Below, in pieces: positions 23,526 to 40,526 of a DNA stretch of 64,000 nt. Positions within the stretch are counted from its first letter, which is position 1. Each line of letters begins with the position of its first letter. Source of the DNA: Candidatus Omnitrophota bacterium (GTDB lineage Bacteria > Omnitrophota > Gorgyraeia > Duberdicusellales > 4484-171). Below the pieces are notes generated by a model, which saw only the letters and a program-made list of their open reading frames with translations, was not told the DNA's origin and ran no database searches. Location: NCBI GenBank assembly GCA_021735655.1, contig JAIPGM010000008.1, forward strand, positions 1-64,000. The letters run 5' to 3'. Made by a program: the position numbers and the translations under genes.

Positions 23526-23714
23526 ATGAGTGGTGAAATTTTAACTGTTGGCGATGTCTGTGAATATTTGAAGATACCACGTTCAACCCTTTATAAGCTT
23601 TCTAAAGATAAGATTATCCCGGCTTTTAGGGTTGGTCGGCACTGGCGTTTTCAAAAGGAAAAGATTGAAGCCTGGTTGGAGGGGCAAACTAGCGAAAAGG
23701 TTAGTCGGCAATAA
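23526..23714 (+). CDS. Excisionase/MerR-superfamily helix-turn-helix DNA-binding protein
   Basis: LTVGDVCEYLKIPRSTLYKL..IPAFRVGRHWRFQKEKIEAWL matches excisionase-family HTH (TIGR01764-like); first gene of the lipid operon. Confidence 0.65.
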   Translation: MSGEILTVGDVCEYLKIPRSTLYKLSKDKIIPAFRVGRHWRFQKEKIEAWLEGQTSEKVSRQ

Positions 23715-23715
23715 T

Positions 23716-24312
23716 ATGTGGTATTGGGTTTTTAAGCATATATTTTGGATTTTATTCACTGTCCTTTTTAGGCTTAAGGTAGAGGGTTTAGATAATTTAC
23801 CGCAAAAGACAAATTTTATCTTAGCGGCTAATCATGCTAGTTTTTTAGACCCGCCTTGTATTATGGCTGGTATCCCAATGAGGGTTTATCCGATTGCCGC
23901 AAGACATCTTTATAAGGTAGGATTAGTTGGCTGGTTTTTAAGAAAAATAAATGCTTTTTCAGCCGGAGGATCATCAAGCCTGGCAGTTAAACTGTTAATG
24001 GAAGGCAAGAATGTTGGTTTATCTCCAGAAGGAAAAATCAGTCTTAATGGTCAACTTAATGAATTTAGAAGAGGGGTAGCTTTGTTAGCGGCAAAAACCG
24101 GTCGGCCGGTTGTTCCTTGCGCTATTTTTGGTGCTTACGAGGCTCTTCCTTATGAAGCTAAATTTCCTAAATTATTTTCACCAATTAAACTAAAGATAGG
24201 CAAACCAGTGTATCTTTTAAAGGAGTTTGATGATGAGATTGACCCTATCTATCTGCGCGAAGGTACTTTTAAGATTCAAAATACAATAAAGGAGTTACTT
24301 AATGAAGAATAA
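23716..24312 (+). CDS. 1-acyl-sn-glycerol-3-phosphate acyltransferase-family (PlsC-like) acyltransferase
   Basis: NHASFLDP (HxxxxD) and SPEGKIS motifs; start taken at the internal Met right after the upstream stop (track ORF 23632 overlaps the HTH gene). Confidence 0.7.
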   Translation: MWYWVFKHIFWILFTVLFRLKVEGLDNLPQKTNFILAANHASFLDPPCIMAGIPMRVYPIAARHLYKVGLVGWFLRKINAFSAGGSSSLAVKLLMEGKNVGLSPEGKISLNGQLNEFRRGVALLAAKTGRPVVPCAIFGAYEALPYEAKFPKLFSPIKLKIGKPVYLLKEFDDEIDPIYLREGTFKIQNTIKELLNEE

Positions 24313-25888
24313 GGGTTTAGTAAAAATAATTGTTTCTCGGACCATACCAGCCGATATTCCTAGTATAGTTCGGGCCCTAAGCAAAGTTGAAGAATTCCCT
24401 GAATATATAGCGACAATTAAACAGGCCTCAATAATAGAAAAATCCCGTAACAAGATGAAAACGAAATGGCTTGTTCAGGTTGACCATGTCCCAATAAGTT
24501 GGATAGAGGAAGACACTTTAAATCTTATAAAAAATACGATTACTTTTAAAGCCGTCGAAGGGGATTTGCAAGAATTTAAGGGGGAGTGGAAGTTTCAGGC
24601 TAAGCCTGAAGGAACCTTGGTTACTGTGACTGCTTATTTAAGAATCGACATACCAGCGATAAAAGATTTCGTTAATACTTATGTAGAAAAGATGCTAGTT
24701 AAGAATTTTACGGCGATATTAAAAGGTATCGAGAAGCGTTTAATTTCAATAAGATATAAAGGCCAGGGAAAAGATGAGATTAAAAAGATAGCCGGATTTG
24801 GAATCATTGGCCATTTGTATAATTTTTATCATTTGGAAAAGTGCCTTAAGATGCTCAACCCTGACTTTAAGATGCCTTCACGAGAATTTTTGGGAAATCT
24901 GTTTAACGTTACTCCTTCGTTCAAGCTTTACGATATAGTAGACTTTAAGTCTAAATCCGGAGGTAGCGTTGATGGATGTTTCATTGTTGCCACTTTTATT
25001 CCTGATTTAATTGAAAAAGATATCTGGTCGATATTTTCGAAGGTGGTCCGGGCCTGTAAGATTGCTGAGAAACACGGGGTTGGTATAGTTACCTTAGGTG
25101 GCTTTACTTCGATTGTTGCCGAGCGGATTGGTCAGGCAATTAGTGAACAGGTTAACGTTCCGATTACCACTGGAAATACCTTTACTGCCGCAATGACCTT
25201 AGAAGGAGTTTATCGGGCGGTTAGAGCTTTAAATTTAGATATTGGTTCGTTAAAGGTAGCTATCGTTGGCGGGACCGGAGACATTGGAAGTGCTTGTGCT
25301 CGAGTTTTAGCTGATCAGGTCAAACAATTGTCTATAACTGGTAGGACCAAAGCTAATTTAAAACAGCTTAAACAAGAACTTAGCAAAAAGCATAAAGCCA
25401 GGATAGTTGCAACTACTAATAATAAAAAGGCAGTAAGTGATGCTGATGTAATTATTGCTGCAGCTAGTGCTACCGAGTCAATACTTTCGATAGATTGGTT
25501 TAAGCCAGGGGCGATAATTTGCGATGTCGGCTACCCAAAGAATATTTCTTATGCCCAGACCGAAAGAGATGATATTCTTATTTTTTCTGGAGGTCTAGCT
25601 CGGAGCCCTAGTTCAATTAAGCTTCCGATTGATTTAGGCTTACCGAACTCGGAAGTTATCTATGGTTGTTTTGCTGAGGCGATTATTTTGTCTTTAGAAA
25701 AGCGTTATGAAAACTACAGTTTTGGTCGGGGAAATATTACTCCTGAGAAAATTAAAGAAATAAAAGAGCTAGGAGAAAAACACGGCTTTGAAGTTTCCCG
25801 ATTCTGGTGGGGTGACAGGCTGCTCGATCAAGCGGCTATCGACAGAATAAAAGAAAGAGTTAATCTTGGAAAAGAACAACTAATATAA
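24302..25888 (+). CDS. Fusion: N-terminal SRPBCC (START/polyketide-cyclase-like) domain + C-terminal acyl-ACP reductase (cyanobacterial AAR family, aldehyde-forming)
   Basis: C-terminal 340 aa align block-by-block with the Synechococcus AAR sequence as recalled (GIIGHL, GIVTLGGFTSI, TTGNTFTA, VAIVGGTGDIGSA, GYPKN, GCFAEAIILSLE, NYSFGRGNIT..I..LGEKHGF); N-terminal 150 aa has SRPBCC-like pattern. Confidence 0.65.
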   Translation: MKNKGLVKIIVSRTIPADIPSIVRALSKVEEFPEYIATIKQASIIEKSRNKMKTKWLVQVDHVPISWIEEDTLNLIKNTITFKAVEGDLQEFKGEWKFQAKPEGTLVTVTAYLRIDIPAIKDFVNTYVEKMLVKNFTAILKGIEKRLISIRYKGQGKDEIKKIAGFGIIGHLYNFYHLEKCLKMLNPDFKMPSREFLGNLFNVTPSFKLYDIVDFKSKSGGSVDGCFIVATFIPDLIEKDIWSIFSKVVRACKIAEKHGVGIVTLGGFTSIVAERIGQAISEQVNVPITTGNTFTAAMTLEGVYRAVRALNLDIGSLKVAIVGGTGDIGSACARVLADQVKQLSITGRTKANLKQLKQELSKKHKARIVATTNNKKAVSDADVIIAAASATESILSIDWFKPGAIICDVGYPKNISYAQTERDDILIFSGGLARSPSSIKLPIDLGLPNSEVIYGCFAEAIILSLEKRYENYSFGRGNITPEKIKEIKELGEKHGFEVSRFWWGDRLLDQAAIDRIKERVNLGKEQLI

Positions 25889-25898
25889 GCTAAAGTTT

Positions 25899-26897
25899 AT
25901 GAAAGTGCTAGTTACCGGAGCTGACGGGTTTTTAGGTTCAAATCTGATTAGGCATTTGCTTGTTGCCGGGCATAAGGTTAAGGCCTTGATCCACAGTGAT
26001 AAGGATTACGATGCTTTAAGCGGGCTTAAGGTTGATAAGTTAAAAGGCGACGTCCTTAGTCCAAAGTCGATTGATAAGGCAATGGCTGGGATTGATGCTG
26101 TATTCCATCTAGCCTCTTTATATAAGTTTTATCCTTGGTGGCAGAAAAAGGCTGGTCAGATCTATAAAGTAAATGTTCAAGGCACAAGAAATGTTTTAAA
26201 AGCCGCCAAAAAAAACAATATCAAACGTTTTATTTTTACCAGCAGTATTGCTTCTTTAGGTAAACAGCTTGGTAAAAAACCGAGCGACGAAACAACCGTG
26301 CTTAATCTAAAAAGTAGAATTAGTCACTATGCCCGTTCAAAAGTATTAGCTGAAAATGAAGTTTTGAGTTTTGTCAGACAAGGCTTACCGGCAATAATTT
26401 TAAATCCAGCAGCTTTAATCGGTGAACGTGATTTTAAGCCAACCCCAACCGGTCAGATGATTATAGATTTTTTAAATCATAAGCTTCCGGTGACTTTTAA
26501 TGGGATGATACCGTTGGCTGATGTTGATGATGTAGCTAGGGCTCACCTGGTAGCTCTTGATAGGGGTAGAGTCGGTGAGCGTTATATTCTTTGTAATAAT
26601 CGGGCCTATCCTTTGAAGGAGTTATTTTATTTAGTTGAGCAAATATCCGGAGTTTCTGCTCCGCGGTTAAAGATACCTTATCCTTTGTTAATGAGTTTTC
26701 TTTATTTTGATGAGGTTTTTTCTTATTTTTTAAAGAAAAGACCGCTTTTATCGAGCTCGGCGGCAAGATTTTTCCGCCGGGCAACGGTATTTGATAATAG
26801 TAAGGCAGCCAGGGAGTTGAGTTATGCGACCACTCCGATTACTACTAGTTTAGAAAAGGCCGTTAACTGGTATAAGGAAAATAGCTATGTCCAATAA
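25899..26897 (+). CDS. NAD(P)-dependent epimerase/dehydratase-family (extended SDR, 3beta-HSD-like) reductase
   Basis: VLVTGADGFLGSNL Rossmann motif, YxxSK (YARSK) active site. Confidence 0.7.
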   Translation: MKVLVTGADGFLGSNLIRHLLVAGHKVKALIHSDKDYDALSGLKVDKLKGDVLSPKSIDKAMAGIDAVFHLASLYKFYPWWQKKAGQIYKVNVQGTRNVLKAAKKNNIKRFIFTSSIASLGKQLGKKPSDETTVLNLKSRISHYARSKVLAENEVLSFVRQGLPAIILNPAALIGERDFKPTPTGQMIIDFLNHKLPVTFNGMIPLADVDDVARAHLVALDRGRVGERYILCNNRAYPLKELFYLVEQISGVSAPRLKIPYPLLMSFLYFDEVFSYFLKKRPLLSSSAARFFRRATVFDNSKAARELSYATTPITTSLEKAVNWYKENSYVQ

Positions 26898-26959
26898 TAA
26901 CAATTATAAGCTATCAAATATTTATTGGCTTAGCTTGATCAAGTAGTTAAATAAGCAAT

Positions 26960-29083
26960 ATGTTAGATCTGATTTTTAATCCAGCTAATTATTATTGGAA
27001 TCCTCATGCGGTTCTCTATCATTTAGTAGGAATTCTTACTTTGCTTGAGGGCATTTTTATTTTTAGTCAGAATCGTAAATCCTTAGTAAATTTAGCCTAT
27101 GGCCTTAGTTGTTTATCAGTTGCTCTTTGGCTTACCGGAACCGGCATGGCTTTAAACAGTAAACTTGAACTAACTGCTTTAATTTGGACCAGGACTTATT
27201 TCTTTTTAGGAGTAATATTTAATACTCCTTCGATATACTTTTTTTCAGTTGCTTGGCAGAAATCGCTTTTTCCTCAAGAGGAAAACAAAAAAATAAAAAT
27301 AGTAATTTTTAACTTTCTTTGCGGTTTGGGGTTCTATATTTTTTGTCTTAACTCTAATCTTTTTATCCAGGGTTTCTGGAATCATTCCTGGGGGTTTTAC
27401 CCTAAGGCCGGCAGTCTTTATTTTATTTTTGTCGGTTGGGTTTATGCTTTGATGATGCTTATGTTGTTTAATTTCATCCAGGTTTACCGCAAGGGGGGTG
27501 ATCCGGTTATAAAAAAACAAGCTAAATTAATGATTATTGCTTTTTCGATTGGCTACCTGGGCACAGCCGAGTTTTTGATGGACTATGGATTTACTCTTTA
27601 TTTTTTAGCCTTTATTCCGGTGTTTATCTGTATTACTATTGTCGGTTACAGCGTTATTCGCTATCGGACTATGGATATTGAAACGGTAATCCATAAGACC
27701 GCTTTATGGATTTTTTCTTATTCGCTTATTGCGGCTCCGATATTTTTTCTCTATAACGGGCTGTCTGAGAAGATTGAGAGTTCTAACTTATTGTTGTTTA
27801 TTTTTTGGACAGCTAGTTTTTTGGCGGTTACCGTTTATTTACGGTTAATTCAACCAAAAATTGATCATTTTTTCCAAAGACGTAAAGCTAATTTGGAAGA
27901 CATTTCTAGTGAATTTACCAAAAATCTTGTCCATTTAAAGGGTCTTAATCAGCTAATCGAACGCATCAAAGAAACAATCACTAATGCTTTTTATCCGCAG
28001 AATATCGATATTTTAATCTATGGCCAGGATGATGAAAGATATCAAGATGAGCCATTTTTGCTTTGGTTGGTTAAGAATGACAAAATTGCCTATCGTGATT
28101 TTATTGAAATCGATCCGGCTTATTCAGCAATTCGTAGCGATGCCAGAAAATATTTCGACTCAGTAGCCGCAGCGGTAGTTGTTCCTTTAGTTTTAAATGA
28201 ACGTCTTTTGGGGGTAATTAATTTAACCAGAAAATCAAACCTAAAACGCTACGCTGCCGTAGATTTTAATTTTTTACGTCTGCTGAAAAACCAGTCGGCA
28301 ATTGCTATATCTAACTCTTTAGTTTATGAGAACATTGAAGAGCAGGTTAAAAGGCGGACTGAGGAGTTAGTTGAGGTGCAGAAGCAATTGATTCAGGCTG
28401 GAAAATTAGCTACTGTTGGTACTTTGGCTGGAGGAGTAGCTCATGAGATAAATAATCCTTTGGCGGCAATTTTAACTAATGCTCAGATGTTGCTTATGTC
28501 ACCGGATGAGCTCAATGTTGAGGAGGCCCGTGAATCATTAGAGTTAATCGAAGAGGCGACCAAGCGTTGTCGAACCATCGTCAGAAAATTAATGACCTAT
28601 GCTCGAAAACCAGTAGAATCAACAACAATTTCTAAAATAAACCTTATTGATGTTGTCAATAAGGTGAAAGCCTTCCTTGATTATCAGTTTAAGCAGGAAA
28701 ATATTCAAATAGTTGTCGTTGCTGAAACTAGCAACTATCCGGTAGTCGGCAATCAGAATGAGTTAGAGCAGGTGGTAACCAATATAGTTTTAAATGCCAA
28801 GGATGCTACGAAGCGGGTTAAAAAAAGCGGCATTATAGATATATCGTTAATGAGCAATGATGGTTGGATAAGGCTGGATATCAAAGATCAAGGCTCTGGC
28901 ATTTCAAAAGACCATGCTTTAAAGATTTTTGACCCCTTTTTTACTACTAAAGACGTAGGAAAGGGGTTAGGTTTGGGTCTTTCAATATCACAGTCGATCA
29001 TTGAGAAGTATAAGGGTTCGATTTTTTTTCATTCTCAGGAAGGTGAGGGCACTATTTTTACCATAAATCTGCCTGAGGCCTGA
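26960..29083 (+). CDS. Multi-TM sensor histidine kinase (7-8 TM, GAF-like, HisKA, HATPase_c)
   Basis: N-terminal ~300 aa polytopic; H-box GGVAHEINNPL; N, G1, G2 boxes (NAKDAT, DQGSGI, GLGLGLSIS). Confidence 0.8.
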   Translation: MLDLIFNPANYYWNPHAVLYHLVGILTLLEGIFIFSQNRKSLVNLAYGLSCLSVALWLTGTGMALNSKLELTALIWTRTYFFLGVIFNTPSIYFFSVAWQKSLFPQEENKKIKIVIFNFLCGLGFYIFCLNSNLFIQGFWNHSWGFYPKAGSLYFIFVGWVYALMMLMLFNFIQVYRKGGDPVIKKQAKLMIIAFSIGYLGTAEFLMDYGFTLYFLAFIPVFICITIVGYSVIRYRTMDIETVIHKTALWIFSYSLIAAPIFFLYNGLSEKIESSNLLLFIFWTASFLAVTVYLRLIQPKIDHFFQRRKANLEDISSEFTKNLVHLKGLNQLIERIKETITNAFYPQNIDILIYGQDDERYQDEPFLLWLVKNDKIAYRDFIEIDPAYSAIRSDARKYFDSVAAAVVVPLVLNERLLGVINLTRKSNLKRYAAVDFNFLRLLKNQSAIAISNSLVYENIEEQVKRRTEELVEVQKQLIQAGKLATVGTLAGGVAHEINNPLAAILTNAQMLLMSPDELNVEEARESLELIEEATKRCRTIVRKLMTYARKPVESTTISKINLIDVVNKVKAFLDYQFKQENIQIVVVAETSNYPVVGNQNELEQVVTNIVLNAKDATKRVKKSGIIDISLMSNDGWIRLDIKDQGSGISKDHALKIFDPFFTTKDVGKGLGLGLSISQSIIEKYKGSIFFHSQEGEGTIFTINLPEA

Positions 29084-29144
29084 TAGGCTTGGTCTTTATG
29101 CGGTTTTAGTATATAATGTATAGATTATAGAAAAAGGTAATAAA

Positions 29145-29591
29145 ATGAATGATTTTTGGGATGTAAATAAAATAAAGAAGGTTTTACCTAAAGACTATCC
29201 TTTTCTTTTTATCGATCGGGTAGTTGAGATTGATTTGGTTGAAAAAAGGATAAAAGGCCTAAAAAATATAACCGTTAATGAGCATTTCTTTTCAAACCAC
29301 TTTCCTGGTAAACCAATTATACCAGGGGCAATTCTGGTTGAGGCAGCCTATCAGGCGAGTATTATTCTTTGTGTTGCTCTTGGTGAGGATAGCCAGTTTA
29401 AGATCGATTACTGTTTAGATAAGGTAGAGGCCAGTTTTTTTAGTAAGGTTAGAGCCGGAGATCAACTTATTTTAGAGGCCAAAGCCGAGAAACTAACAGC
29501 TAAAACAGCAGCAGTCAGAGTGGTTGTTTCAGTAAGTGACAATAAGTGTGCCGAGTTAACTGTTTTTTTAAAGCTAAATAAAGGGGGCTAA
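29145..29591 (+). CDS. FabZ-like beta-hydroxyacyl-ACP dehydratase
   Basis: LPKDYPFLFIDRV...NEHFFSNHFPGKPIIPGAILVEA hotdog/FabZ signature. Confidence 0.8.
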   Translation: MNDFWDVNKIKKVLPKDYPFLFIDRVVEIDLVEKRIKGLKNITVNEHFFSNHFPGKPIIPGAILVEAAYQASIILCVALGEDSQFKIDYCLDKVEASFFSKVRAGDQLILEAKAEKLTAKTAAVRVVVSVSDNKCAELTVFLKLNKGG

Positions 29592-29592: not shown

Positions 29593-29970
29593 ATGGTTAA
29601 AAGAATTTTAATTATTGAAGATGAACAGATAATAACTAAAAGTTTACAGCGTTTGCTAAAAAAAGAAGGTTATCAGGTAGAGATTTCTAATAACGGGGCA
29701 GATGCTCTTGAGAAAATAAAGGCTGGAGAGTTTAATTTAATAGTCAGCGACATTAGAATGCCAGATATGGATGGCATTGAGACAATTAAAGCTATTCGAA
29801 AGTCTCTCACCGAGCAGGGCAAGCCTTTGATTCCTGAGATATTAATTACCGGTTATGCTGATGAGTCTAAATATCAGGAAGCTTTGGAGCTAAAAGTTGC
29901 CGATTACCTCTATAAACCTTTTGACATTAAAGATTTCCTAGAGGCAGTTAGGAGAAATATCAATGCTTAA
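29593..29970 (+). CDS. Stand-alone CheY-like response regulator
   Basis: ILIIEDE, DIRMPDMDG, receiver fold, no output domain; overlaps fabG start. Confidence 0.8.
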   Translation: MVKRILIIEDEQIITKSLQRLLKKEGYQVEISNNGADALEKIKAGEFNLIVSDIRMPDMDGIETIKAIRKSLTEQGKPLIPEILITGYADESKYQEALELKVADYLYKPFDIKDFLEAVRRNINA

Positions 29971-30700
29971 AGGAAAAACTGCAATTATTAGCGGAGCCAG
30001 CCGTGGCATTGGCCGGGCTATTGCAATGAAATTAGCCACCGAAGGTGCAAATATATCTTTTAGTTATTTAAACAGCAAAGTTGCTGCTGATAAATTAGAA
30101 AATGAGATCAATTCGCTGGGTGTAAAAGCTAAGGGCTATCAATTAGATATAAAGGATTTTGACTCAGTAAGTAAGTGGGTCAGTGATACTAAGGAAAGTT
30201 TCGGTGGTTTAGACATCATAGTTAATAATGCCGGAATTATTATTGATAAAGCTCTGGCCTTGATGGAACACTCAGATTGGAAGAGTGTTTTAGATACTAA
30301 TTTAGGCGGTTTATTTAACTTAACCCGGGCAGCAATTATAACTTTAATAAAACAAAGGTCCGGTCAAATTATTAACATTACTTCGGTAACCGGAATGGTC
30401 GGGATGGCTCGTCAGACGAATTATGCGGCAACTAAGGCCGGAATCATCGGCTTTACCAAGTCTTTGGCCAGAGAAGTTGGTTCTTATAATATAAGAGTTA
30501 ATGCGATTGCTCCGGGCTTTATTGAAACTGATATGCTCAGCGGCCTAAAAGATAAATATCGAGAAGATGTCACTCAACAAATTCCTTTGCGGCGGTTTGG
30601 CAAGCCTGAAGAAGTCGCTGGTTTGGTAAGTTTTTTGGCTAGTGAAAAAGCAGACTATATTACCGGCCAGGTAATAGTTGTTGATGGCGGGATGACTTAA
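29963..30700 (+). CDS. fabG: 3-oxoacyl-ACP reductase (FabG-type SDR)
   Basis: TAIISGASRGIGRAIA, NNAG, YAATKAG (YxxxK) motifs. Confidence 0.85.
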   Translation: MLKGKTAIISGASRGIGRAIAMKLATEGANISFSYLNSKVAADKLENEINSLGVKAKGYQLDIKDFDSVSKWVSDTKESFGGLDIIVNNAGIIIDKALALMEHSDWKSVLDTNLGGLFNLTRAAIITLIKQRSGQIINITSVTGMVGMARQTNYAATKAGIIGFTKSLAREVGSYNIRVNAIAPGFIETDMLSGLKDKYREDVTQQIPLRRFGKPEEVAGLVSFLASEKADYITGQVIVVDGGMT

Positions 30701-31936: not shown

Positions 31937-32187
31937 TGGTACCCGAAGATTTAGGAAAACAAATTAAGGATATAGTCGCAAGAGTTATTGAAATTGAGCT
32001 TGATCAGGTTACTCCCGATGCTGACTTTATTAATGATTTGGGAGTAGATTCTTTGAAGGCAATTGAGATTACCGGAGCCATTGAGAAAGCCTTTCGGGTA
32101 GTTGTGCCGGAAGAAAAGATTCGTGATATTCGCACCCTTAACCAGGCGATCAGTTTAACTCAGCAGCTGCTCCAAGCAAAAGGATAA
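31936..32187 (+). CDS. Acyl carrier protein
   Basis: 83 aa, DLGVDSL phosphopantetheine-attachment motif. Confidence 0.75.
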   Translation: MVPEDLGKQIKDIVARVIEIELDQVTPDADFINDLGVDSLKAIEITGAIEKAFRVVVPEEKIRDIRTLNQAISLTQQLLQAKG

Positions 32188-32639: not shown

Positions 32640-33852
32640 CGATAGACGAGTAGTGGTAACTGGTATTGGGGTAATCTCAGCAGTTGGTAATGGCAAAGAG
32701 ACTTTCTGGAAAGCAATCAAGGAGGGAAAGTCCGGAATAAGCGAAATTACTTCAATGGATACTTCAGTTTATAAGTGCCACTTAGGTGGTGAGGTGAAGG
32801 ATTTTAATCCTGAAGAGTTTATTCCTAAGCGGAGAATAAAATTTCTTGGGAGATCTTCTCAACTAGCCATAGCTGCATCAAGTCTCGCTTTAAAAGATGC
32901 TAAGCTTGACTATAAAAGCACTGAAAGAAAGGAAATGGGGGTTATTGTTGGGACAACTACTGGCGAACGACCCTTGGAGGAGCTTTTAGCCTCTTGGGCT
33001 AAGGGTGGCTTTAAAGATGTTGACCGGGCAAAAGTATTTCAAGCCACAGTGAATAATATTTCGGCTAATGTTGGAATAGAGTTTAAGGCTCGAGGGGTAA
33101 ATTATCTTATTCCTACGGCTTGCGCTGCCGGAAATTACGCAATCGGTTGTGGATTTGATTTAATTAGAAGTGGGGATTTAAACTTTGCTTTAGTTGGCGG
33201 AGCCGATGCTTTTTCTAAATTTGCTTTTACCGGGTTTCAAAGGATTTATGCTATGAGCCCTGACTTTATGCGTCCTTTTGATAAAAATAGAAGAGGGATG
33301 ATGCAGGGGGAAGGTTCGGGAATGCTTCTCCTAGAGTCTTACAAATCAGCTAAGAAAAGAGGTGCTGATATCTATGCTGAGGTTTTAGGCTATGGCTTAT
33401 CTTGTGATGCTTATCATGCGACAGCACCTGATCCAAAAGGAATAGCTAAAGTTATGGAGAAGGCCTTAGCTGAGACCGGCCTAACCTATAAAGATGTAGA
33501 TTATATTTGTGCTCATGGAACCGGAACCGGTCCAAATGATAAGGCCGAGTGCATAGGTATTAAGGCGGTTTTTAAAGAACGCTCTAAAGAGATTATGGTT
33601 AGTTCAATAAAATCTATGCTTGGTCATGCTATGGGGGCAGCTTCGGCAATTGAAGCAGCTGCTTGTTGCCTAGCGGTCAAAGATGATATCGCGCCGCCAA
33701 CCATAAACTATGAGACCCCTGATCCTGATTGTGACATAGATTGTGTCCCGAATAAAGCCAGAAAGGCAAAGATTAATGTAGCCCTTAATAATGGTTTTGC
33801 TTTTGGCGGTAACAATGCCTGCGTGGTTATTAAAAAAATAGAAGATGCCTAA
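32632..33852 (+). CDS. Beta-ketoacyl-ACP synthase II-type (FabF-like), catalytically intact
   Basis: PTACAAGNYAIG (Cys), CAHGTGTGPND (His), KSMLGHAMGAAS (His), C-terminal NGFAFGGNNA. Confidence 0.85.
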   Translation: MNNDRRVVVTGIGVISAVGNGKETFWKAIKEGKSGISEITSMDTSVYKCHLGGEVKDFNPEEFIPKRRIKFLGRSSQLAIAASSLALKDAKLDYKSTERKEMGVIVGTTTGERPLEELLASWAKGGFKDVDRAKVFQATVNNISANVGIEFKARGVNYLIPTACAAGNYAIGCGFDLIRSGDLNFALVGGADAFSKFAFTGFQRIYAMSPDFMRPFDKNRRGMMQGEGSGMLLLESYKSAKKRGADIYAEVLGYGLSCDAYHATAPDPKGIAKVMEKALAETGLTYKDVDYICAHGTGTGPNDKAECIGIKAVFKERSKEIMVSSIKSMLGHAMGAASAIEAAACCLAVKDDIAPPTINYETPDPDCDIDCVPNKARKAKINVALNNGFAFGGNNACVVIKKIEDA

Positions 33853-35326
33853 TAAATATGACGTTATAGTTATTGGCGCTGGGATCGGCGGATTAACTGC
33901 TGCTGCCATACTAGCCAGAAATGGCAAAAAGGTGTTGGTTTTGGAGAAGAATCCTATAGCCGGAGGTTATGCGGTTAATTTTAAGAGGGGTGAGTTTGAG
34001 TTTGATGCTTCTTTACATTTGCTAAACGGGTTTTTTCCTGGAAAACCAACTTATCACTTTTTGCAATTAGCCGGAATTGATAATAAAGTAACTTTTTTAA
34101 AACCCGAATATCTTTATCGTTCAGTTTTTCCGGATTACGATATCAGAGTGCCACAATGTGACCCTAAAGCCTATATTAATATTTTAGCTAAATATTTTCC
34201 TAAAGATAAGCCCAAGCTTGAAGAATTATTTAGTTTGATGTATCGTATATTTTGTCGAATTCAAGATATCGAAGGTGACAAAATATCACCGGCTGAGTTA
34301 ACTGGTTATATCGGTAAGACCCATCAAGATGTTTTAGATGAATTCAAAATTAGTAATCAGCTGGCCGCTTTAATATCACAAGTTTGGCCTTTTATTGGTA
34401 CCCCGCCGTCTCAGCTTCCTTTTTTAGTTTTTTTGTCATCTTTCAGTGATTTTATTTACAATGGTGGATATTATCCGAAAGGCGGCGGCCAAGCAATTTC
34501 AGATGCTTTGGTTGATGTAATTTGTGAGAACCAAGGAGAAGTTATTTTCAAAGAAAAGGTTAGCAAAATTCTTATCGAAGGTAATTCAGCGTATGGTTTA
34601 GTGGACCAATTCGGTAATGAGTTTTTTGCCAAAGAAATAATTTCAAACATTGATGCTAATTTTCTTTTCGGTGAGTTGATTGAAAATAAATATTTGCCTA
34701 GTGATTTTTTAGATAAAGTTTCTCGTTTTAAGCCATCAATTTCGGCTTTCCAGGTTTACTTAGGTTTAGATATCGAAGCAGGCAAACTCGCTATAAACGA
34801 CTATACTATATTTTCTAATCCTGACTATGACTTATCTAAACAATATCAAGAATCTTTGGTTAATAATGTTGAGGTGGTTCCTATAGAAATAAGTTTTCAT
34901 AACTCTCTGTTTGATTCTGGCTTTCCTAAATCAAGCACTTTGAGTATAGTTTCTTTGGCCGGCTATGATTTTTGGCAAAATCTATCAAAACAAGAATATG
35001 CGGTAAAAAAGAAAAAATTGGCCGATATTTTAATTAAGCGAGCTGAAGACTTTATTCCTGGTTTATCGGGAAGGATTAAATTGATTAATATAGCTACGCC
35101 AATTACTATGGAGCGTTATACCGGGAATTCAGCTGGTGCTATTTATGGTTGGAGCCAAACTATGGATCAATATGGTTCAAAGAGGATGCGGCAGAATACA
35201 CCAATTGATAATCTTTTTCTTGTTGGAGCCTGGACTAGACCAGCAGGAGGAGTTTCTGGGGCAATGCAATCCGGAGCAATGGTATCGAAAAAAATCCTAA
35301 TTAATGCAGCTAATGTCAAAAAATAA
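33845..35326 (+). CDS. FAD/NAD(P)-dependent oxidoreductase of the phytoene-desaturase (CrtI/amine-oxidase) family
   Basis: YDVIVIGAGIGGLTAAAILARNGKKVLVLEKN dinucleotide-binding motif, GGYA, C-terminal GAWTRPAGGVSGA. Confidence 0.7.
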   Translation: MPNKYDVIVIGAGIGGLTAAAILARNGKKVLVLEKNPIAGGYAVNFKRGEFEFDASLHLLNGFFPGKPTYHFLQLAGIDNKVTFLKPEYLYRSVFPDYDIRVPQCDPKAYINILAKYFPKDKPKLEELFSLMYRIFCRIQDIEGDKISPAELTGYIGKTHQDVLDEFKISNQLAALISQVWPFIGTPPSQLPFLVFLSSFSDFIYNGGYYPKGGGQAISDALVDVICENQGEVIFKEKVSKILIEGNSAYGLVDQFGNEFFAKEIISNIDANFLFGELIENKYLPSDFLDKVSRFKPSISAFQVYLGLDIEAGKLAINDYTIFSNPDYDLSKQYQESLVNNVEVVPIEISFHNSLFDSGFPKSSTLSIVSLAGYDFWQNLSKQEYAVKKKKLADILIKRAEDFIPGLSGRIKLINIATPITMERYTGNSAGAIYGWSQTMDQYGSKRMRQNTPIDNLFLVGAWTRPAGGVSGAMQSGAMVSKKILINAANVKK

Positions 35327-36623
35327 AAGAATTGTTGTTACTGGATTGGGTCCTTTGTCAGCCATTGGTATGGGCAAGGAGGCTTTATGGAAGTCTGTTT
35401 TAGCAGAAAAGACGGGATTGACTTTAGAAAAATACAGTATCAATGGTCAGGAATTGGGTGACTATTATGCCCATCGGATCAAAGATTTTGATATTAACGA
35501 TTTTAATATTGATAAAAATATTTTGGAAGATATTAAGGCTTGGAAAGAGCAAGCTAATCCCATCGATCTTTTTTATCTTTTGGCTGTAGTTAAGTTAGCT
35601 CTGAGTGATTCCAAAATAAACTATACTAATAGAGCTGAAACAGAAAGATTAGGGTTGATAGTAACGCATGAGAATCCTGGCCTAGACCAATTCTATGAAG
35701 AAGTCATAAACGAGTCTTATGATTTTCTAGTAAAGGGTAATAATAGTGTAATTTCTCGGAAGGATTATTTTCAAGAATTTTATCGAAAATTCGCCAAACG
35801 CGGTTACGAACTCCAGACTTTTATGCCGCTTTTTCATTTAGCTAAAGTTTTTAATATCCATAATTACTCTATATTCTTATGCAATGCTTGTGCTTCGGGT
35901 TTATTTGCCGTCGAGGCAGCCGCTGATATTATTAAAAGTGGTAAATGTAACACAGTTGTGGTTGCCGGGTCAGATTGTACCAGTATTTTTAAATATCTTT
36001 GGTTCAAAGGATTAGATATGTATGCTGAAGATGGTAAGATAAAGCCCTTTGCTAAAAATAGGAATGGTTTTGTTACTGGCGATGGTGGAGCTGGCATCGT
36101 ATTAGAAGATTTATATAGCGCGTTAGAAAGAGGCGCTCATATTTATGCTGAATATTTAGGAGGAGGATTTCATTTAGAGGGTTGGAAAGTTGCTATGCCG
36201 GAGATAAACGGTGATTCATACAAAAAAGCTATCATGCAATCTTTGCAAAGAAGTGATGTTCCAAAAGAGGCAATCGATTTACTTGTACCTCATGGCGTGG
36301 GAACTACGGCTGCCGATTATTATGAGGCAAAGGCTATTACGAGTATATTTGGTAAAAATTGTAAAAAACCTTTAATGGCAGCTTTGAAGCCTTATATCGG
36401 CCATAATTTGGGAAGCACAGCCCTATTGGAATTAGCAATTTCAATATTAGCTTTAGAGAATAATTATTTACCAAAAACACTCAATCTTACCGAAGTTGAT
36501 CCAAAATTAGGAGTTAATTTAGTGACTACTTCTAAAGCTTATGATATGCGAACATTGATGAAGACAGCTTGTGGATTTGCCGGTTACAATGGTTCAGTTA
36601 TTCTAAAAAAATATACTAAATGA
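35304..36623 (+). CDS. Third ketosynthase (divergent KS with intact Cys/His/His)
   Basis: CNACASGLFAV, VPHGVGTTAAD, YIGHNLGSTA motifs; longer N-terminal region than FabF. Confidence 0.7.
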   Translation: MQLMSKNKRIVVTGLGPLSAIGMGKEALWKSVLAEKTGLTLEKYSINGQELGDYYAHRIKDFDINDFNIDKNILEDIKAWKEQANPIDLFYLLAVVKLALSDSKINYTNRAETERLGLIVTHENPGLDQFYEEVINESYDFLVKGNNSVISRKDYFQEFYRKFAKRGYELQTFMPLFHLAKVFNIHNYSIFLCNACASGLFAVEAAADIIKSGKCNTVVVAGSDCTSIFKYLWFKGLDMYAEDGKIKPFAKNRNGFVTGDGGAGIVLEDLYSALERGAHIYAEYLGGGFHLEGWKVAMPEINGDSYKKAIMQSLQRSDVPKEAIDLLVPHGVGTTAADYYEAKAITSIFGKNCKKPLMAALKPYIGHNLGSTALLELAISILALENNYLPKTLNLTEVDPKLGVNLVTTSKAYDMRTLMKTACGFAGYNGSVILKKYTK

Positions 36624-38812
36624 TAGTTTTTAATCTTTTTACAATTTCAGGCTTACTAACTGGAATTACTTGCTCTTTCTTGGCGGTTATTTTACTTATT
36701 TTTGGTCGGGTAAAAGAAGTTAAGCTGACTCGTTTATGGATGATTTTCAACACTGTTGTTGCTCTTTGGGATTTTAGTTTATTTTTTATTGGTCAAGCGA
36801 CAAATAGTTTAGTTGCTTTTGATCGGTGGAGGCTAGCTCATGTACCGGGCTTACTTATAGCCCCGCTTTTTTTACATGTTATTTATGTGTTTTGTGGTAT
36901 TCAGCGACGTAAGTTTTTGGTTTTTTCCTATTTAGCCGCATTAACCTATATAGTTTTAGACTCTTTTAATTTATTAAGCTATACGACCCAATTAATTTTT
37001 GGGGCGTTTTACTATATTAAACCGATTGGTCCGCAATACACTGCATTTGCTACTCTTTGGCTTTATATCATTGCACACTCTTTGTTTGTTTTGTTTCGTT
37101 TCTATAGAACTGCTTCTGGCCATAAGAAAAACCAAGCTTTATATTTTTTAATTGTAATGCTAGTTGGATTTAGCGGGGGATCAACCCATTTTATTACCGC
37201 AATCGCTTTTTCTAAAGGTATTCAAATATATCCTTTTGGGCAATTAGGTGTAGCTTTGTATTGTATAGTAGCTACTTACGCTATCCTTAAATACCGCCTT
37301 ATGGATGTTAGAATATTTGTTTCCCGGGCCGCGGCTTTTCTCATTAGTTATCCTTTCTTTTTGAGTATTCCTTTTATTTTTGCTTATAGGACGCAAGTAG
37401 AGCTTCATTCTTTGATGGGTGCTAATTGGTGGCTTGTGCCGGCTGGTTTAATTATCTTTTTTTCCAGTTTATCACCGATAGCCTATAGCCAATTAAAAAT
37501 TAGGATGGAGGAAAAGCTTCTGGCGGATCAGAAGCGTTACCAAAAATTACTACTTCAGGCAGCAAGTGGTATGGCTACTGAGCATAATTTGAATAAACTT
37601 TCAAAACTCATTGTTTATATTGTTAAGCGGGCGGTAAAGGTAGAATTTGCGACTATTTTTATCGATGATAAAAATGATGGGGTTTACCGGATGAAAGCTT
37701 TTCGGGATACACAACGGGAAGCGCCATTTGCAAATGTGACCTTTCTTTATGAGCACTCTTTTATTAGATATCTAGCTAAGCATAGCGAACCTTGCATTTA
37801 TGAAGAGTTACCAGAAGAGATTAGGGCTTCTTTGGGGGCATTTTCTAGCGCAGCTTTAGTTATACCTTCAGCTGTTCAAGATGAGCTTTTAGGTTTTGTT
37901 ATTCTAGGGGCAAAGCTTAATAAACAACCCTATAGTGATGACGATGTAAATGTTTTTAAGATTCTTTCGCATCAAGCAGCCTTGGCTATTGAGAATAGTT
38001 TATTTCTAGAGGAAACTAAACAGGCACAGGAGAAGATATTTGCTGCCGAGAAGCTAGCTTCAATCGGTGGCATGGCTGACGGAGTGGCCCATCAGATTAA
38101 AAATCGTCTTAATCAATTTTCAGTAGCTAGTGGTGAGTTAAAGTATGAAATAAAAGATTATTTAGCCAAGCATCCGGCGATTACTAAAAATAATAAGGAT
38201 TTGAAGAAAACCCTTAAATATCTTACTGAAATAGCCGACTCTCTCATAAATAATGTAAAGCGTACTGATGGGATAGTTAAGGGAATCCTTAACTTTGCCC
38301 GAGTGGAAGAGACCAGCACTTTTTTCTCTCAGTTTTCTTTAAAAGAGGTAATTGATTTGTCTGCCGAACTATTAAAGATAAAACATGAGATTTTCGAAGC
38401 TCCTTTGGATATTAAGCTAGGTTCTTCAGATACTGTTTATGGTATAAAATCTCAAATTACCGAGGCGGTTTATAACTTATTAGATAATGCTTATGAAGCT
38501 ACTCAGGAGAAGAGAGCTCTCATGACCAAAGAAGGTAGGGATGGTTTTAATCCTCTAATTAAGATTAAGTTAACTCATAAGGCAGGCGTAAATTTGCTTG
38601 AAATTTCCGACAATGGTATTGGGATGAGAGATGAAGATAAAGCGAAAGTGTTTGCACCCTTTTTTACTACCAAATCGTCTTATAAATCAGGAACTGGAAT
38701 CGGGGTGTATGTTGTTAAGCGTATGATTGAAGAGAATCATAAGGGCAAGGTTCACTTTAGTTCCACTTACATGGAGGGAACTAAATTTTTTGTAGAATTG
38801 CCAAAAAAATGA
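36620..38812 (+). CDS. Multi-TM sensor histidine kinase (paralog of 26960..29083)
   Basis: Polytopic N-terminus, GAF-like middle, H-box GVAHQIKNRL, HATPase_c G-boxes (DNGIGM, GTGIGV). Confidence 0.8.
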   Translation: MIVFNLFTISGLLTGITCSFLAVILLIFGRVKEVKLTRLWMIFNTVVALWDFSLFFIGQATNSLVAFDRWRLAHVPGLLIAPLFLHVIYVFCGIQRRKFLVFSYLAALTYIVLDSFNLLSYTTQLIFGAFYYIKPIGPQYTAFATLWLYIIAHSLFVLFRFYRTASGHKKNQALYFLIVMLVGFSGGSTHFITAIAFSKGIQIYPFGQLGVALYCIVATYAILKYRLMDVRIFVSRAAAFLISYPFFLSIPFIFAYRTQVELHSLMGANWWLVPAGLIIFFSSLSPIAYSQLKIRMEEKLLADQKRYQKLLLQAASGMATEHNLNKLSKLIVYIVKRAVKVEFATIFIDDKNDGVYRMKAFRDTQREAPFANVTFLYEHSFIRYLAKHSEPCIYEELPEEIRASLGAFSSAALVIPSAVQDELLGFVILGAKLNKQPYSDDDVNVFKILSHQAALAIENSLFLEETKQAQEKIFAAEKLASIGGMADGVAHQIKNRLNQFSVASGELKYEIKDYLAKHPAITKNNKDLKKTLKYLTEIADSLINNVKRTDGIVKGILNFARVEETSTFFSQFSLKEVIDLSAELLKIKHEIFEAPLDIKLGSSDTVYGIKSQITEAVYNLLDNAYEATQEKRALMTKEGRDGFNPLIKIKLTHKAGVNLLEISDNGIGMRDEDKAKVFAPFFTTKSSYKSGTGIGVYVVKRMIEENHKGKVHFSSTYMEGTKFFVELPKK

Positions 38813-38949
38813 TAAGATAAATGGTATATCCCTCGCGCCTAAATATTCGAAAAATTTCTACGATATTTTTCGAAGGCGCTTCGGGATCAATTCTAATGAG
38901 ACTGTAATTTTTCTCAATCAATGAGAAAAATTACATAGTCGAATTATCA

Positions 38950-39327
38950 TTGAGGAGGTACAATATGAATAAAGTTTTAATAGTTGATGATGAAGTCGAA
39001 ATTACCGAGTTTCTATGCAATTTTTTGAATCGTTTTGATATAGTTAATGAAAGAGCTTCTGATGCCAAAACTGCTTTAGATAAGTTTAACAAATTAAAGC
39101 CTAACTGGGTTTTATTGGACATAAAGATGCCGGGCATGGATGGGTTTGAGTTGTTGGCAGAGTTTAAAAAAATAAACTCAAACATAAAGGCAATGATGAT
39201 TACTGGAAAAGATGACAAGGAATCGCAAGATCGCGCTAAAAAGTTAGGAGCCCTAGATTACATTTTTAAGCCTTTGGATTTAGATGAATTACATCAGAAA
39301 ATTAAAACTCATATTCTTAAAAAATAA
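38950..39327 (+). CDS. Stand-alone CheY-like response regulator
   Basis: VLIVDDE, LLDIKMPGMDG, receiver domain only. Confidence 0.8.
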   Translation: MRRYNMNKVLIVDDEVEITEFLCNFLNRFDIVNERASDAKTALDKFNKLKPNWVLLDIKMPGMDGFELLAEFKKINSNIKAMMITGKDDKESQDRAKKLGALDYIFKPLDLDELHQKIKTHILKK

Positions 39328-39338
39328 TTTAGAATAAG

Positions 39339-40526
39339 ATGCCGAAAAAAAAGAAACCTGACTATGGAAAAGGCTTAGAACAAGCTGCTAAGCAGATGAT
39401 TCTAATCCGCCGGGTGGATACTCTGATTAAGCTCATTTTACGAAGCATTATCAAAAATATAAAAGTTGAGCATGCTGGCCTTCTTTTGTATGATAAGTCA
39501 AAAGATGCTTATATAGTTACTGTTTCTAGGGGGAAGGGCGGAATAAAGATACCGGCCGGCCTTACTAAGATAAGCAAAGGTAATGCATTGGTCAGATACT
39601 TTACTGATAAAAAACTAAGAATTTTTGGTGAGCAACCCCTTATTTTGGAAAAAATAAGTGCTTATCTTAATTCTGAAAGGCCTAAAGGTACTAAAAATTT
39701 AAGAATTTTTTTAAGGGACGTAATCTTTCAGCTCTCACTTTATAATGCTAGAGCTTGCATTGCCGGGTTTTTTAGAGAAGAGTTAATATTTATTCTTTTT
39801 TTAGGTCGAAAGATTAATCTCAAACGATTTAATCAAGACGAGTTAGGATTTTTATCAGTTTTAAGTTCAGATGCAGTAATGGCTATTCAGAATGCCTGGT
39901 ACTTTCAGGATTTAGATAAACAGCTTCACAAAAACAAGAATTTATTTTTACAGACTGTTATGGCTTTAGCCACAGCGATTGAAGCTAAGGATAAATATAC
40001 TTCCGGTCATACCGAGCGGGTATCGCACTACTCTTTGCTTATAGCTCAAGAGATAAAAGCAGTGCGCAGTAATGCCCAAAAAGATTGGGATAGATTTTCA
40101 GAGGATTTGAGAATAGCCTCATTACTTCACGATATTGGTAAAATTGGCCTTCGCGAAGGAGTACTCAATAAGGAAGGTATTTTAACTGACGAGGAAAGAA
40201 GCGAGATGCAACGGCATCCTTTAGTTGGGTCGTCAATATTGAATCAAGTTGATGAATTTCAAGATCCTATTTTGGGGGTGAAGTATCATCATGAGCGATA
40301 CGATGGCAAGGGCTATCCTGAGGGTTTAAAGGGAAACAAAATACCTTTGATAGCTCAGATAATTGCCGTTGCTGATACTTATGACGCTATGACTTCCGAT
40401 CGTCCTTACAGAAGAGGGATGTCTAAGAAGCAGGCTATACAGGAGATTCGCAAGAACAAGGCTAAGCAATTTTCTCCTTTGGTGGTCGATGCTTTTTTAA
40501 AACTTTACAAAGAGGGAAAGATATAG
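39339..40526 (+). CDS. GAF-domain HD-GYP phosphodiesterase (c-di-GMP)
   Basis: HD motif LLHDIGKIGL, HHERYDGKGYPEGL (HD-GYP signature), N-terminal GAF-like region. Confidence 0.75.
   Translation: MPKKKKPDYGKGLEQAAKQMILIRRVDTLIKLILRSIIKNIKVEHAGLLLYDKSKDAYIVTVSRGKGGIKIPAGLTKISKGNALVRYFTDKKLRIFGEQPLILEKISAYLNSERPKGTKNLRIFLRDVIFQLSLYNARACIAGFFREELIFILFLGRKINLKRFNQDELGFLSVLSSDAVMAIQNAWYFQDLDKQLHKNKNLFLQTVMALATAIEAKDKYTSGHTERVSHYSLLIAQEIKAVRSNAQKDWDRFSEDLRIASLLHDIGKIGLREGVLNKEGILTDEERSEMQRHPLVGSSILNQVDEFQDPILGVKYHHERYDGKGYPEGLKGNKIPLIAQIIAVADTYDAMTSDRPYRRGMSKKQAIQEIRKNKAKQFSPLVVDAFLKLYKEGKI

Follow-up and report, generated by a model that had tools for sequence, protein, structure and literature searches.

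A recurring Omnitrophota operon that may well couple an anammox-type acyl-chain pathway to lipid off-loading and c-di-GMP-linked signalling

A recurring operon in Omnitrophota

What is made by an operon in which fatty acid synthase (FAS)-type enzymes stand among sensor kinases, and do the regulatory genes belong to the pathway? The question is raised by positions 23526 to 40526 of contig JAIPGM010000008.1 (assembly GCA_021735655.1, Candidatus Omnitrophota bacterium), whose first 64,000 nucleotides were analysed here and are called the window. Seventeen genes at this locus (Table 1) encode an HTH_17 DNA-binding protein, a PlsC-family acyltransferase, a START/SRPBCC domain fused to an acyl-acyl carrier protein reductase (START-AAR), an extended short-chain dehydrogenase/reductase (SDR), two FabZ dehydratases, FabG, an acyl carrier protein (ACP), three ketosynthases (KS-a, KS-b and KS-c), a flavoenzyme of the CrtI or phytoene dehydrogenase (PDH) family, two histidine kinases (HK1 and HK2), two CheY-like receivers (RR1 and RR2) and an HD-GYP phosphodiesterase. 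On balance, we favour the reading that this is a recurring Omnitrophota operon in which a dedicated, ACP-based pathway for acyl chains is coupled both to lipid off-loading and to two-component signalling linked to cyclic di-GMP (c-di-GMP), and we hold it with modest confidence.

START-AAR, KS-a and an NMO/FabK-like protein encoded at 274-1359 of the window each have a 100% identical counterpart in a Candidatus Omnitrophica MAG. As exact searches of a contig index with START-AAR and the NMO/FabK-like protein gave no match, the gene-neighbourhood context was taken from the loci of homologues on contigs of relatives (labelled L), and L084, L089, L100, L102, L103 and L167 were assigned to Omnitrophota by gene identity to the window. 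At least nine other contigs (L084, L085, L089, L090, L100, L102, L103, L166 and L167) show the same skeleton, in the order HTH_17, PlsC, START-AAR, seven-transmembrane (7TM) kinase, CheY, FabG, chain-length factor (CLF), ACP, FabZ, KS, 7TM-GAF kinase, CheY and HD-GYP, and the identity of KS-a across these nine loci runs from 91% down to 46%. START-AAR has at least 119 non-identical matches (63-74% identity), all named ones being from Omnitrophota; KS-a also has at least 119 (59-91% identity), and the named ones are mostly from the same phylum. The HTH_17 gene is likewise the first gene in L001, L002, L084, L085, L103 and L167. Because the same skeleton recurs across loci, the two-component genes interleaved in it belong to what is conserved. 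The earlier, sequence-only reading of this DNA had regarded such interleaving as uncommon; it does not hold up as an oddity of one genome, given that kinase, CheY and HD-GYP genes are all conserved in the recurring operon. The possibility that homologous genomes would show the genes dispersed also found no support, and in most homologous loci the genes are clustered.

Around the skeleton, the SDR, KS-c, CrtI-like and FabZ1 genes are variable. L002, L166 and L167 have the SDR, which L001 and L084 lack; KS-c is absent from L085 and L090, the CrtI-like gene is absent from L084 and L085, and FabZ1 occurs in the window and L084 only. The order KS-b, PDH, KS-c of the window is shared by L167. Inserts also vary: a formyltransferase-like gene (L166 and L167), a fusion of AMP-ligase, ACP and acyltransferase (L084) and a nitroreductase (L085). 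Three further loci (L093, L097 and L101) hold CLF-FabZ-KS-ACP(-PDH) without kinases.

Two other genes of relatives have no counterpart in the window. One, of about 330 codons, lies between the HTH and PlsC genes (L085:964-1965, L103:700-1869 and L102:9032-9976); its L085 copy, the only one with Pfam data, has no Pfam match, and the gene product scores 130-157 bits to the START-AAR of the window, so that it may be a divergent paralogue of the AAR domain. The other encodes a conserved protein of about 500 residues without Pfam match, placed after START-AAR or SDR in L002/L003 and L085.

Ketosynthases, ACP and dehydratases resemble those of anammox bacteria

When solved structures were searched, KS-b had its best match in 9s5h_B (470 bits, 55% identity; the runner-up, Iga11, scored 342 bits) and KS-a in 9s5h_C (371 bits, 46% identity; runner-up 257 bits). 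According to a 2026 preprint from the Barends group (bioRxiv 10.64898/2026.05.19.726425), these chains are amxFabF2 and amxFabFmut, the KS/CLF-like heterodimer of the anammox Cluster I, the putative ladderane cluster, which spans KustE3603-3608 and comprises amxACP, amxFabZ, amxFabF2, amxFabFmut, a phytoene-dehydrogenase homologue and a B12 radical SAM protein; the two KS proteins decarboxylate malonyl-ACP only as a pair, and in crosslinking the pair prefers C6-C8 over C16. The preference of the anammox homologues for C6-C8 is also given in PMC10139942.

The alignment with sequences derived from the loci showed that Tyr, Ala and Glu replace the Cys and both His of the KS-a active site, with the Lys retained. 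The site is intact in KS-b (Cys164, His295, Lys327, His332) and in KS-c (Cys-His-Lys-His). The Cys position is occupied by Tyr, Phe or Ile in related sequences and by Val or Glu in the anammox sequences. This alignment bears out the earlier proposal of an active KS with a partner lacking Cys and His. In a neighbour-joining tree, with canonical FabF references drawn from FabG-ACP-FabF loci, KS-b groups with amxFabF2 and KS-a with amxFabFmut in the CLF clade, and KS-c forms a clade of its own with its orthologues from L084, L089, L100 and L103. All three are outside the canonical FabF clade, so a placement inside housekeeping FabF/FabB clades, which the sequence-only reading had named as the outcome that would speak against it, was not observed. 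That reading had compared the cluster with aryl-polyene, heterocyst-glycolipid and ladderane systems alike; the clades of KS-a and KS-b make the ladderane-type likeness the specific match. Heterocyst-glycolipid-type synthesis by a type I polyketide synthase (PKS) and a polyunsaturated fatty acid synthase were considered as well and rejected, the KSs all being discrete type II proteins with low scores to PfaA and type I PKS.

Judged from these sequence relationships, the KS/CLF pair of the operon is not a housekeeping FabF. By analogy with the anammox proteins we infer that KS-b and KS-a would act as a heterodimer, priming from malonyl-ACP and setting chain length.

The best matches of the operon ACP among solved structures are also anammox proteins, the amxACPs 7qv0_D (60 bits), 7auf (54 bits) and 9s5i_E (50 bits), although by a small margin, with the next non-anammox match at 49 bits; E. 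coli AcpP scores 41 bits. The ACP diverges faster than KS-b, with identities between loci of 39-50% versus 55-68%. An ACP sequence unlike the housekeeping AcpP and this faster divergence are signs of a dedicated pathway. FabZ2 matches amxFabZ (7qv0_A) with 111.7 bits versus 91.5 for the best canonical FabZ, and the top solved relatives of FabZ1 are the anammox amxFabZ structures 8ayb and 7qv0 (90.7 versus 86.2 bits for the canonical enzyme). Among the loci compared, only L084 has a FabZ1 orthologue (66% identity). Pfam and NCBIfam scans of the 17 operon proteins detected no FabD, FabH or enoyl reductase, FabI included, in agreement with what had been read from the sequence.

The operon shares with Cluster I the orthologous pair of active and dead KS in the same clades, an amx-like FabZ and the sub-order ACP-FabZ-KS; its ACP is amx-like by a small margin, and a CrtI-family flavoenzyme lies beside a KS but is of another clade. 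It differs in that it holds no radical-SAM gene and that its dead KS carries Tyr or Phe at the position of Val, Thr or Glu in the anammox proteins, and it adds FabG, KS-c, a second FabZ, PlsC, START-AAR, SDR, two kinase/CheY pairs and HD-GYP. The hosts differ too, Omnitrophota for the operon and Brocadiales for Cluster I. Cluster I has been described as exclusive to ladderane producers, and biosynthetic proposals have been built on this (PMC10139942; bioRxiv 10.64898/2026.05.19.726425). Our comparisons indicate that its KS/CLF, ACP and FabZ are not exclusive to such organisms, with orthologues on many contigs of the neighbouring phylum Omnitrophota, and are part of a more widespread module. 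Since close relatives recur in Omnitrophota without a radical-SAM gene, the anammox-type enzymes are not ladderane-specific. This would narrow the ladderane-specific step to the radical-SAM enzyme, perhaps together with the anammox-type flavoenzyme, and the Omnitrophota orthologues provide a comparative set for finding what the shared core makes.

Off-loading enzymes and flavoenzyme

The PlsC-family protein carries the HX4D motif (HASFLD), and its nearest NCBIfam models are acyl-[ACP]-phospholipid O-acyltransferases. In START-AAR, residues 166-497 align end to end with residues 2-335 of the S. elongatus AAR (6jzu), the catalytic Cys is kept (C456, corresponding to C294 of 6jzu) and the NADPH motif GGTGDIG is present. 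The full-length alignment, catalytic Cys and NADPH motif are features held in common with cyanobacterial AAR (TIGR04058; 6jzu) and with the N-terminal thioester reductase of PigE (4ppm), whose domain scores 182 bits. Unlike these enzymes, the operon protein has an N-terminal START/SRPBCC domain, has no deformylating oxygenase or aminotransferase as partner and scores far under the TIGR04058 equivalog cut-off (172.9 against 449.7 bits). No ferritin-like oxygenase that could be an aldehyde-deformylating partner was found among the Pfam-scanned open reading frames (ORFs) of the window. The SDR reaches 324.7 bits against HpnA (TIGR03466; cut-off 367.65) and contains the GxxGxxG and YARSK motifs.

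An acyl reductase and a PlsC/AGPAT acyltransferase are also combined in the myxobacterial ElbD, a ligase-ACP-reductase-AGPAT enzyme of ether-lipid synthesis. The AMP-ligase/ACP/acyltransferase fusion beside START-AAR in L084 completes the ElbD domain set. The operon differs from ElbD in that its reductase is AAR-type and not a terminal thioester reductase, and in having its domains split over several proteins. An alkyl-DHAP synthase was not seen, and any formation of ethers would be putative. ElbD homologues have been reported in 93 of the 267 Omnitrophota metagenome-assembled genomes (MAGs) of a Black Sea survey (PMC11868695).

The CrtI-like enzyme has its best NCBIfam matches in CrtISO/CrtD-like models and scores 159 bits, far under the cut-off, against the carotenoid isomerase model TIGR02730. 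Its nearest 50%-cluster representatives are 56, 48 and 45% identical. Identity is 65% with the equivalently placed gene of L167 and 32% with the anammox PDH of L016, and the enzyme belongs to a clade apart from most PDHs of related operons. A scan of genome contigs, with the CrtI-like alignment and a generic FAD motif as pattern, listed mostly unrelated CrtI-family loci with at most 38% identity, along with the anammox control locus L016; no close relatives were among the matches listed, which include relatives outside such an operon context. As a trait of the cluster, therefore, the CrtI-like gene is present in the window as had been described, but it is a variable accessory and not an anammox orthologue. 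More generally, the domain calls of the sequence-only reading were all verified by Pfam and NCBIfam profile searches, and profiles and motifs confirm the AAR-type reductase, PlsC-type acyltransferase, CrtI-like flavoenzyme, dedicated ACP and duplicated dehydratases.

Signalling genes and their links to c-di-GMP

The N-terminus of HK1 matches HisKA_7TM (41.7 bits) and its H-box (HEINNP) is present; the orthologues of HK2 in L085, L166 and L167 match the same model. Two kinase/CheY pairs had been described inside the operon, and both are present, but the first pair is not adjacent, FabZ1 lying between HK1 and RR1. The last protein contains the HD-GYP motifs HDIGK, HHE and GYP. Its description as a GAF-HD-GYP protein stands: Pfam detected no GAF domain in its N-terminus, and a profile-profile comparison matched residues 17-190 to the GAF region of HK2 with 98.7% probability.

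In the three kinase-less loci (L093, L097 and L101), a gene for a PilZ-methyltransferase fusion lies immediately upstream of CLF-FabZ-KS-ACP(-PDH), and this protein may be a c-di-GMP-gated tailoring enzyme. From gene content, the lipid core is predicted to be tied to c-di-GMP in two independent ways, through a phosphodiesterase in one architecture and through a receptor domain in the other. The repeated co-inheritance of lipid genes with 7TM-GAF kinases and HD-GYP, or with PilZ-methyltransferase, suggests that, in this largely uncultured phylum, the lipid composition of the envelope and c-di-GMP signalling are connected in a hitherto undescribed way.

Other signalling and methyltransferase genes were noted. 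A further c-di-GMP turnover enzyme, a composite protein with GGDEF and HD-GYP domains, is encoded at 52927-54489 of the window, 12 kb downstream, and L001 and L002 have stand-alone methyltransferases interspersed with their kinase genes. We also considered that the 7TM kinases might carry a retinal-like polyenal chromophore, and dropped this idea as unsupported.

The Rpf/DSF (diffusible signal factor) system of Xanthomonas comprises RpfF and RpfB for fatty-acid signal synthesis, the kinase RpfC and the receiver-HD-GYP protein RpfG. As in that system, fatty-acid-derived metabolism is encoded beside a sensor kinase and HD-GYP; moreover, L001 and L100 have tandem pairs of HD-GYP genes, and in L001 each has a receiver domain as in RpfG. 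In contrast to Rpf, the operon has no crotonase-type RpfF, its kinases are 7TM-GAF proteins and not RpfC-type hybrids, and the HD-GYP protein of the window carries a GAF-like domain in place of the receiver.

Proposed pathway and points against it

In the pathway that we propose, malonyl-ACP on the operon's ACP would be decarboxylated and condensed by the KS-b/KS-a heterodimer, as the homology to amxFabF2/amxFabFmut suggests, and KS-c may provide a second condensing activity. FabG would reduce the keto group and FabZ1 and FabZ2 would dehydrate, consistent with the motifs present in them. With no enoyl reductase encoded, the chain would be saturated by an enzyme encoded elsewhere or would retain its double bonds, and the CrtI/CrtISO-like flavoenzyme, where present, may alter C=C bonds. 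The finished chain could leave by two routes. Its enzyme family suggests that PlsC would transfer the chain onto a lyso-glycerolipid; START-AAR would release it reductively as an aldehyde, and the HpnA-like SDR may take this aldehyde on to the alcohol. The outcome would be ester-type and possibly ether/alkyl-type envelope lipids. Co-inheritance points to the kinases, CheYs and GAF-HD-GYP as most likely tying lipid synthesis to c-di-GMP, as regulators or as product sensors.

A more speculative extension is that the operon is a self-contained circuit of lipid and signal. The related GAF domains of the 7TM kinases and HD-GYP would bind the product or an intermediate of the pathway (an unsaturated or short acyl chain, aldehyde or alcohol), lipid synthesis and c-di-GMP turnover would control each other, and the KS/CLF-ACP-FabZ core, inherited within the PVC (Planctomycetes-Verrucomicrobia-Chlamydiae) superphylum, would make the precursor from which anammox bacteria form ladderanes by the radical-SAM step alone. 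We consider this improbable as a whole. If it were true, the Omnitrophota genes would make the first half of ladderane biosynthesis, long unknown, tractable to study.

Several observations weigh against the coupling of a dedicated pathway to off-loading and signalling. No product is known for any member of the operon's gene family, the anammox one included. The operon encodes neither FabD nor an enoyl reductase, so that its chain, of whatever length, could be saturated, unsaturated or a polyene. The evidence for one transcript is the spacing of the genes, and a hairpin-bearing gap of about 152 nt precedes RR2. The CrtI-like gene is an unstable member, with zero to two copies in differing positions and clades. 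L001 and L002/L003 hold HTH-PlsC-AAR-kinase-CheY-(HD-GYP) without FAS genes within 10 kb; since the PlsC/AAR/kinase half stands alone there, the halves are separable and AAR may also use ordinary acyl-ACPs. Finally, KS-a, START-AAR and a FabK-like gene that stands alone are so highly conserved that a housekeeping role would fit as well.

Primary fatty acid synthesis as an alternative

The alternative that survives best is that the operon carries out the housekeeping fatty acid and phospholipid synthesis of Omnitrophota, embedded in envelope-stress signalling. KS/CLF would then replace FabH and FabF in the early steps, KS-c would elongate further, FabG and FabZ would have their normal functions, a stand-alone FabK-like enzyme would supply enoyl reduction and PlsC would build phospholipid. 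FabG passes the FabG equivalog cut-off and KS-b passes that of the PRK07314 KAS-II subfamily, no canonical fab gene was found in the window of about 64 kb or in the Omnitrophota loci read, and in L001 and L085 the operon is flanked by genes for MGDG-synthase-like and LpxL-like proteins. KS-a, START-AAR and the FabK-like protein each have at least about 120 close homologues of about 60-90% identity, nearly all named ones being Omnitrophota, a pattern that core genes would show. FabH might be dispensable, given that the anammox heterodimer initiates by decarboxylation of malonyl-ACP.

However, FabD, AccABCD, PlsX and PlsY are absent from the operon, and its atypical ACP (see the AcpP score above), which evolves faster than the KSs, would be unusual as a sole housekeeping ACP. 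L001 and L002 have PlsC, AAR and kinases with no FAS genes nearby, the anammox homologues favour C6-C8 substrates, and ordinary phospholipid synthesis has no use for a reductase that forms aldehydes. The enoyl reductase that this alternative calls on is also doubtful. The sole candidate in the window is an NMO/FabK-like flavoprotein encoded by ORF 274-1359, 22 kb upstream of the operon, which scores 160 bits against the FabK model TIGR03151 (cut-off 453) and has no fab neighbours in relatives: no canonical fab genes were found beside it in two large Omnitrophota contigs. The matches listed for it are 66-89% identical and, where named, mostly from Omnitrophota. The protein may be an enoyl reductase that serves the operon in trans, or else an unrelated housekeeping enzyme. 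Taken together, we regard the housekeeping role as unlikely, though worth keeping in view; were the cluster indeed the only FAS of the phylum, it would be a case of a primary fatty acid synthase that depends on a chain-length factor.

Polyene and ladderane alternatives

A second alternative concerns the product. The operon could be a highly reducing type II PKS, aryl-polyene (APE)- or ishigamide-like but without the aryl head, in which cycles of KS/CLF, ketoreductase and dehydratase without enoyl reduction would give a polyenoyl-ACP, the flavoenzyme would act on the polyene, and the chain would be anchored by PlsC or released as a polyenal. This is a variant of the dedicated lipid pathway and not an alternative to its architecture. 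KS/CLF, ketoreductase, two dehydratases and ACP with no enoyl reductase are the exact set of such a PKS, and the likeness to the ishigamide (Iga10-16) and Ape clusters extends to discrete ACP and FabZ-like dehydratases. Among solved structures, the ishigamide KS Iga11 ranks second for KS-b (342 bits), FabZ2 matches an ApeI-like dehydratase model and its orthologues an ApeP-like one, FabG scores 259 bits to the flexirubin protein FlxB, and a CrtISO/CrtD-like enzyme is chemically suited to conjugated polyenes. A PlsC-type acyltransferase also belongs to APE clusters, where it serves lipid anchoring.

Against a polyene, the scores of KS-b to FabF nearly equal that to Iga11 and so do not discriminate, the flavoenzyme is absent from L084 and L085, and Pfam detected no aryl-starter ligase, thioesterase or LolA/MMPL export domain in the 17 operon proteins. 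Compared with the ishigamide and Ape clusters, the operon is without an aryl starter module, thioesterase and export genes, and its AAR-type reductive release and embedded signalling genes have no counterpart in them. In addition, the anammox group regards the orthologues as FAS-like enzymes for which FabI would act in trans, and no pigment or polyene has been reported from Omnitrophota. We therefore consider a polyene product rather improbable.

The synthesis of ladderane lipids, to which the antiSMASH label 'ladderane' would point, is very improbable: four to five of the six Cluster I gene families are present and the order ACP-FabZ-KS followed by a CrtI-like gene is partly shared, but Radical_SAM and B12-binding domains are absent from the operon proteins and from every other window ORF of at least 240 residues scanned, whereas the control locus L016 (a Planctomycetes MAG) has ACP-FabZ-KS-CLF-PDH directly followed by a B12-binding radical-SAM gene, the CrtI-like enzyme is not the anammox orthologue (other clade), and ladderanes are known only from anammox Planctomycetota (PMC9902471). 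Lacking a B12 radical-SAM gene, the operon would not be expected to make ladderanes.

Relation to earlier reports

The sequence-only reading had supposed that the arrangement may not be described, and this is true in part. Clusters labelled 'ladderane' by antiSMASH have already been reported in Omnitrophota and several non-anammox phyla, with function unassigned (PMC9902471; PMC11968836), and synteny with Desulfotalea had been seen by Rattray et al. 2009. On the other hand, our literature search found no paper on the architecture with AAR, PlsC, two-component and HD-GYP genes or on the PilZ association, nor one that recognizes the Omnitrophota KS/CLF pair as orthologous with the solved heterodimer of anammox bacteria. 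The operon described here gives a gene-level meaning to unexplained antiSMASH 'ladderane' calls in non-anammox bacteria.

Operon organization and genomic surroundings

ORF calling showed that 17 ORFs, all on the + strand, fill the locus, confirming the seventeen co-oriented genes described before. Neighbouring genes overlap by at most 23 nt or are at most 62 nt apart; the sole exception is the gap between HK2 and RR2, which measures 137 nt if RR2 starts at the first TTG and about 152 nt if it starts at the ATG at 38965, where a GAGGAGG ribosome-binding site is present. A hairpin is present inside this gap. The start of PlsC is probably the ATG one base past the HTH stop (23716) rather than the TTG at 23632. 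A promoter-like site lies immediately 5' of the HTH_17 gene, and tRNA-Ser starts directly past a terminator-like hairpin, at 40585. The GC content of the operon (0.35-0.41) is like that of the surrounding DNA. In an Rfam scan of the operon for c-di-GMP or other riboswitches, the tRNA was the sole match.

Table 1. Genes and sites of the operon in window coordinates, and fusion genes of the kinase-less loci
Feature	Coordinates	Strand	Evidence
HTH_17 (excisionase/MerR-like) DNA-binding protein, 62 residues, first gene	23526..23714	+	PF12728 66 bits; TIGR01764
PlsC-family acyltransferase (lysophospholipid/acyl-ACP type)	23716..24312	+	PF01553 78.7 bits
START/SRPBCC + AAR-like fusion	24302..25888	+	Polyketide_cyc residues 24-128; TIGR04058 172.9 bits
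HpnA-like extended SDR, candidate aldehyde or thioester reductase	25899..26897	+	Epimerase 138.9 bits; NAD_binding_4 72.5 bits
HK1, 7TM-GAF-HisKA-HATPase sensor kinase	26960..29083	+	HisKA, HATPase_c, weak GAF_3; HisKA_7TM 41.7 bits
FabZ1, 3-hydroxyacyl-ACP dehydratase	29145..29591	+	PF07977 79 bits
RR1, single-domain CheY-like receiver	29593..29970	+	PF00072 97.8 bits
FabG, 3-oxoacyl-ACP reductase	29963..30700	+	TIGR01830 311.8 bits, cut-off 297.75 passed
KS-a, catalytically dead, CLF-like KS (amxFabFmut-type)	30704..31936	+	best PDB match 9s5h_C 371 bits
Dedicated ACP	31936..32187	+	PP-binding 54.9 bits; DSL serine motif
FabZ2, amxFabZ-like dehydratase	32190..32639	+	PF07977 93 bits; ApeI-like 30.9 bits
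KS-b, triad-intact KS (amxFabF2-type), predicted KS-a partner	32632..33852	+	best PDB match 9s5h_B 470 bits
CrtI/CrtISO-family FAD oxidoreductase (PDH), variable accessory	33845..35326	+	Amino_oxidase 63.5 bits
KS-c, third KS, triad intact	35304..36623	+	both ketoacyl-synt domains
HK2, multi-pass membrane GAF-HATPase sensor kinase	36620..38812	+	GAF, GAF_2, GAF_3, HATPase_c; HisKA marginal 13.8 bits
RR2, single-domain CheY-like receiver, probable ATG 38965	38950..39327	+	PF00072 96.7 bits
GAF-like domain + HD-GYP c-di-GMP phosphodiesterase, last gene	39339..40526	+	HD_5 121.9 bits
Promoter-like site	23436..23464	+	top sigma-70-type consensus match in 22900-41000, 10/12; consensus match only
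Terminator-like hairpin	40554..40575	+	top-listed terminator-like site of region; 9-bp stem + T-run; consensus match only
PilZ-methyltransferase fusion genes	L093:6371-7762; L097:1159-2469; L101:8295-9758		PilZ passed 1e-05 in L097 and L101; L093 methyltransferase domain only

Just past the operon and tRNA-Ser(GGA) (40585-40675), a large serine recombinase gene lies on the - strand at 40541-42109. A perfect 33-nt inverted repeat (40670-40702 and 42243-42275) flanks this gene, and there is overlap between the left arm of the repeat and the 3' end of the tRNA. A second inverted repeat of 184 nt (96%; 42273-42456 and 48970-49153) brackets a 6.5-kb segment with a GC content of 0.31-0.32 and reversed GC skew, which encodes a ClpP/NfeD-like protease, an Mrr-type restriction endonuclease and proteins without assigned function. 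The region 40541-49153 looks like an integrated or invertible mobile element. In L084, L166 and L167, other genes are found downstream of HD-GYP.

Elsewhere in the window, two ORFs, 2663-4237 (524 residues) and 14158-17364 (1068 residues), have no Pfam match at E <= 1e-05, and the former, the only one for which NCBIfam was searched, has no match there either. Upstream of the operon, positions 17762-23387 encode an alginate-export-type porin, a Wza-like polysaccharide export protein with tetratricopeptide repeats, a methyltransferase, a LOG-family (lysine-decarboxylase-like) protein and a conserved Cys-rich protein of 99 residues. The LOG gene and the 99-residue gene recur upstream of the operon in L084, L166 and L167, and L167 also has a PilZ protein and the porin there. 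The operon may thus lie within a larger envelope or exopolysaccharide neighbourhood.

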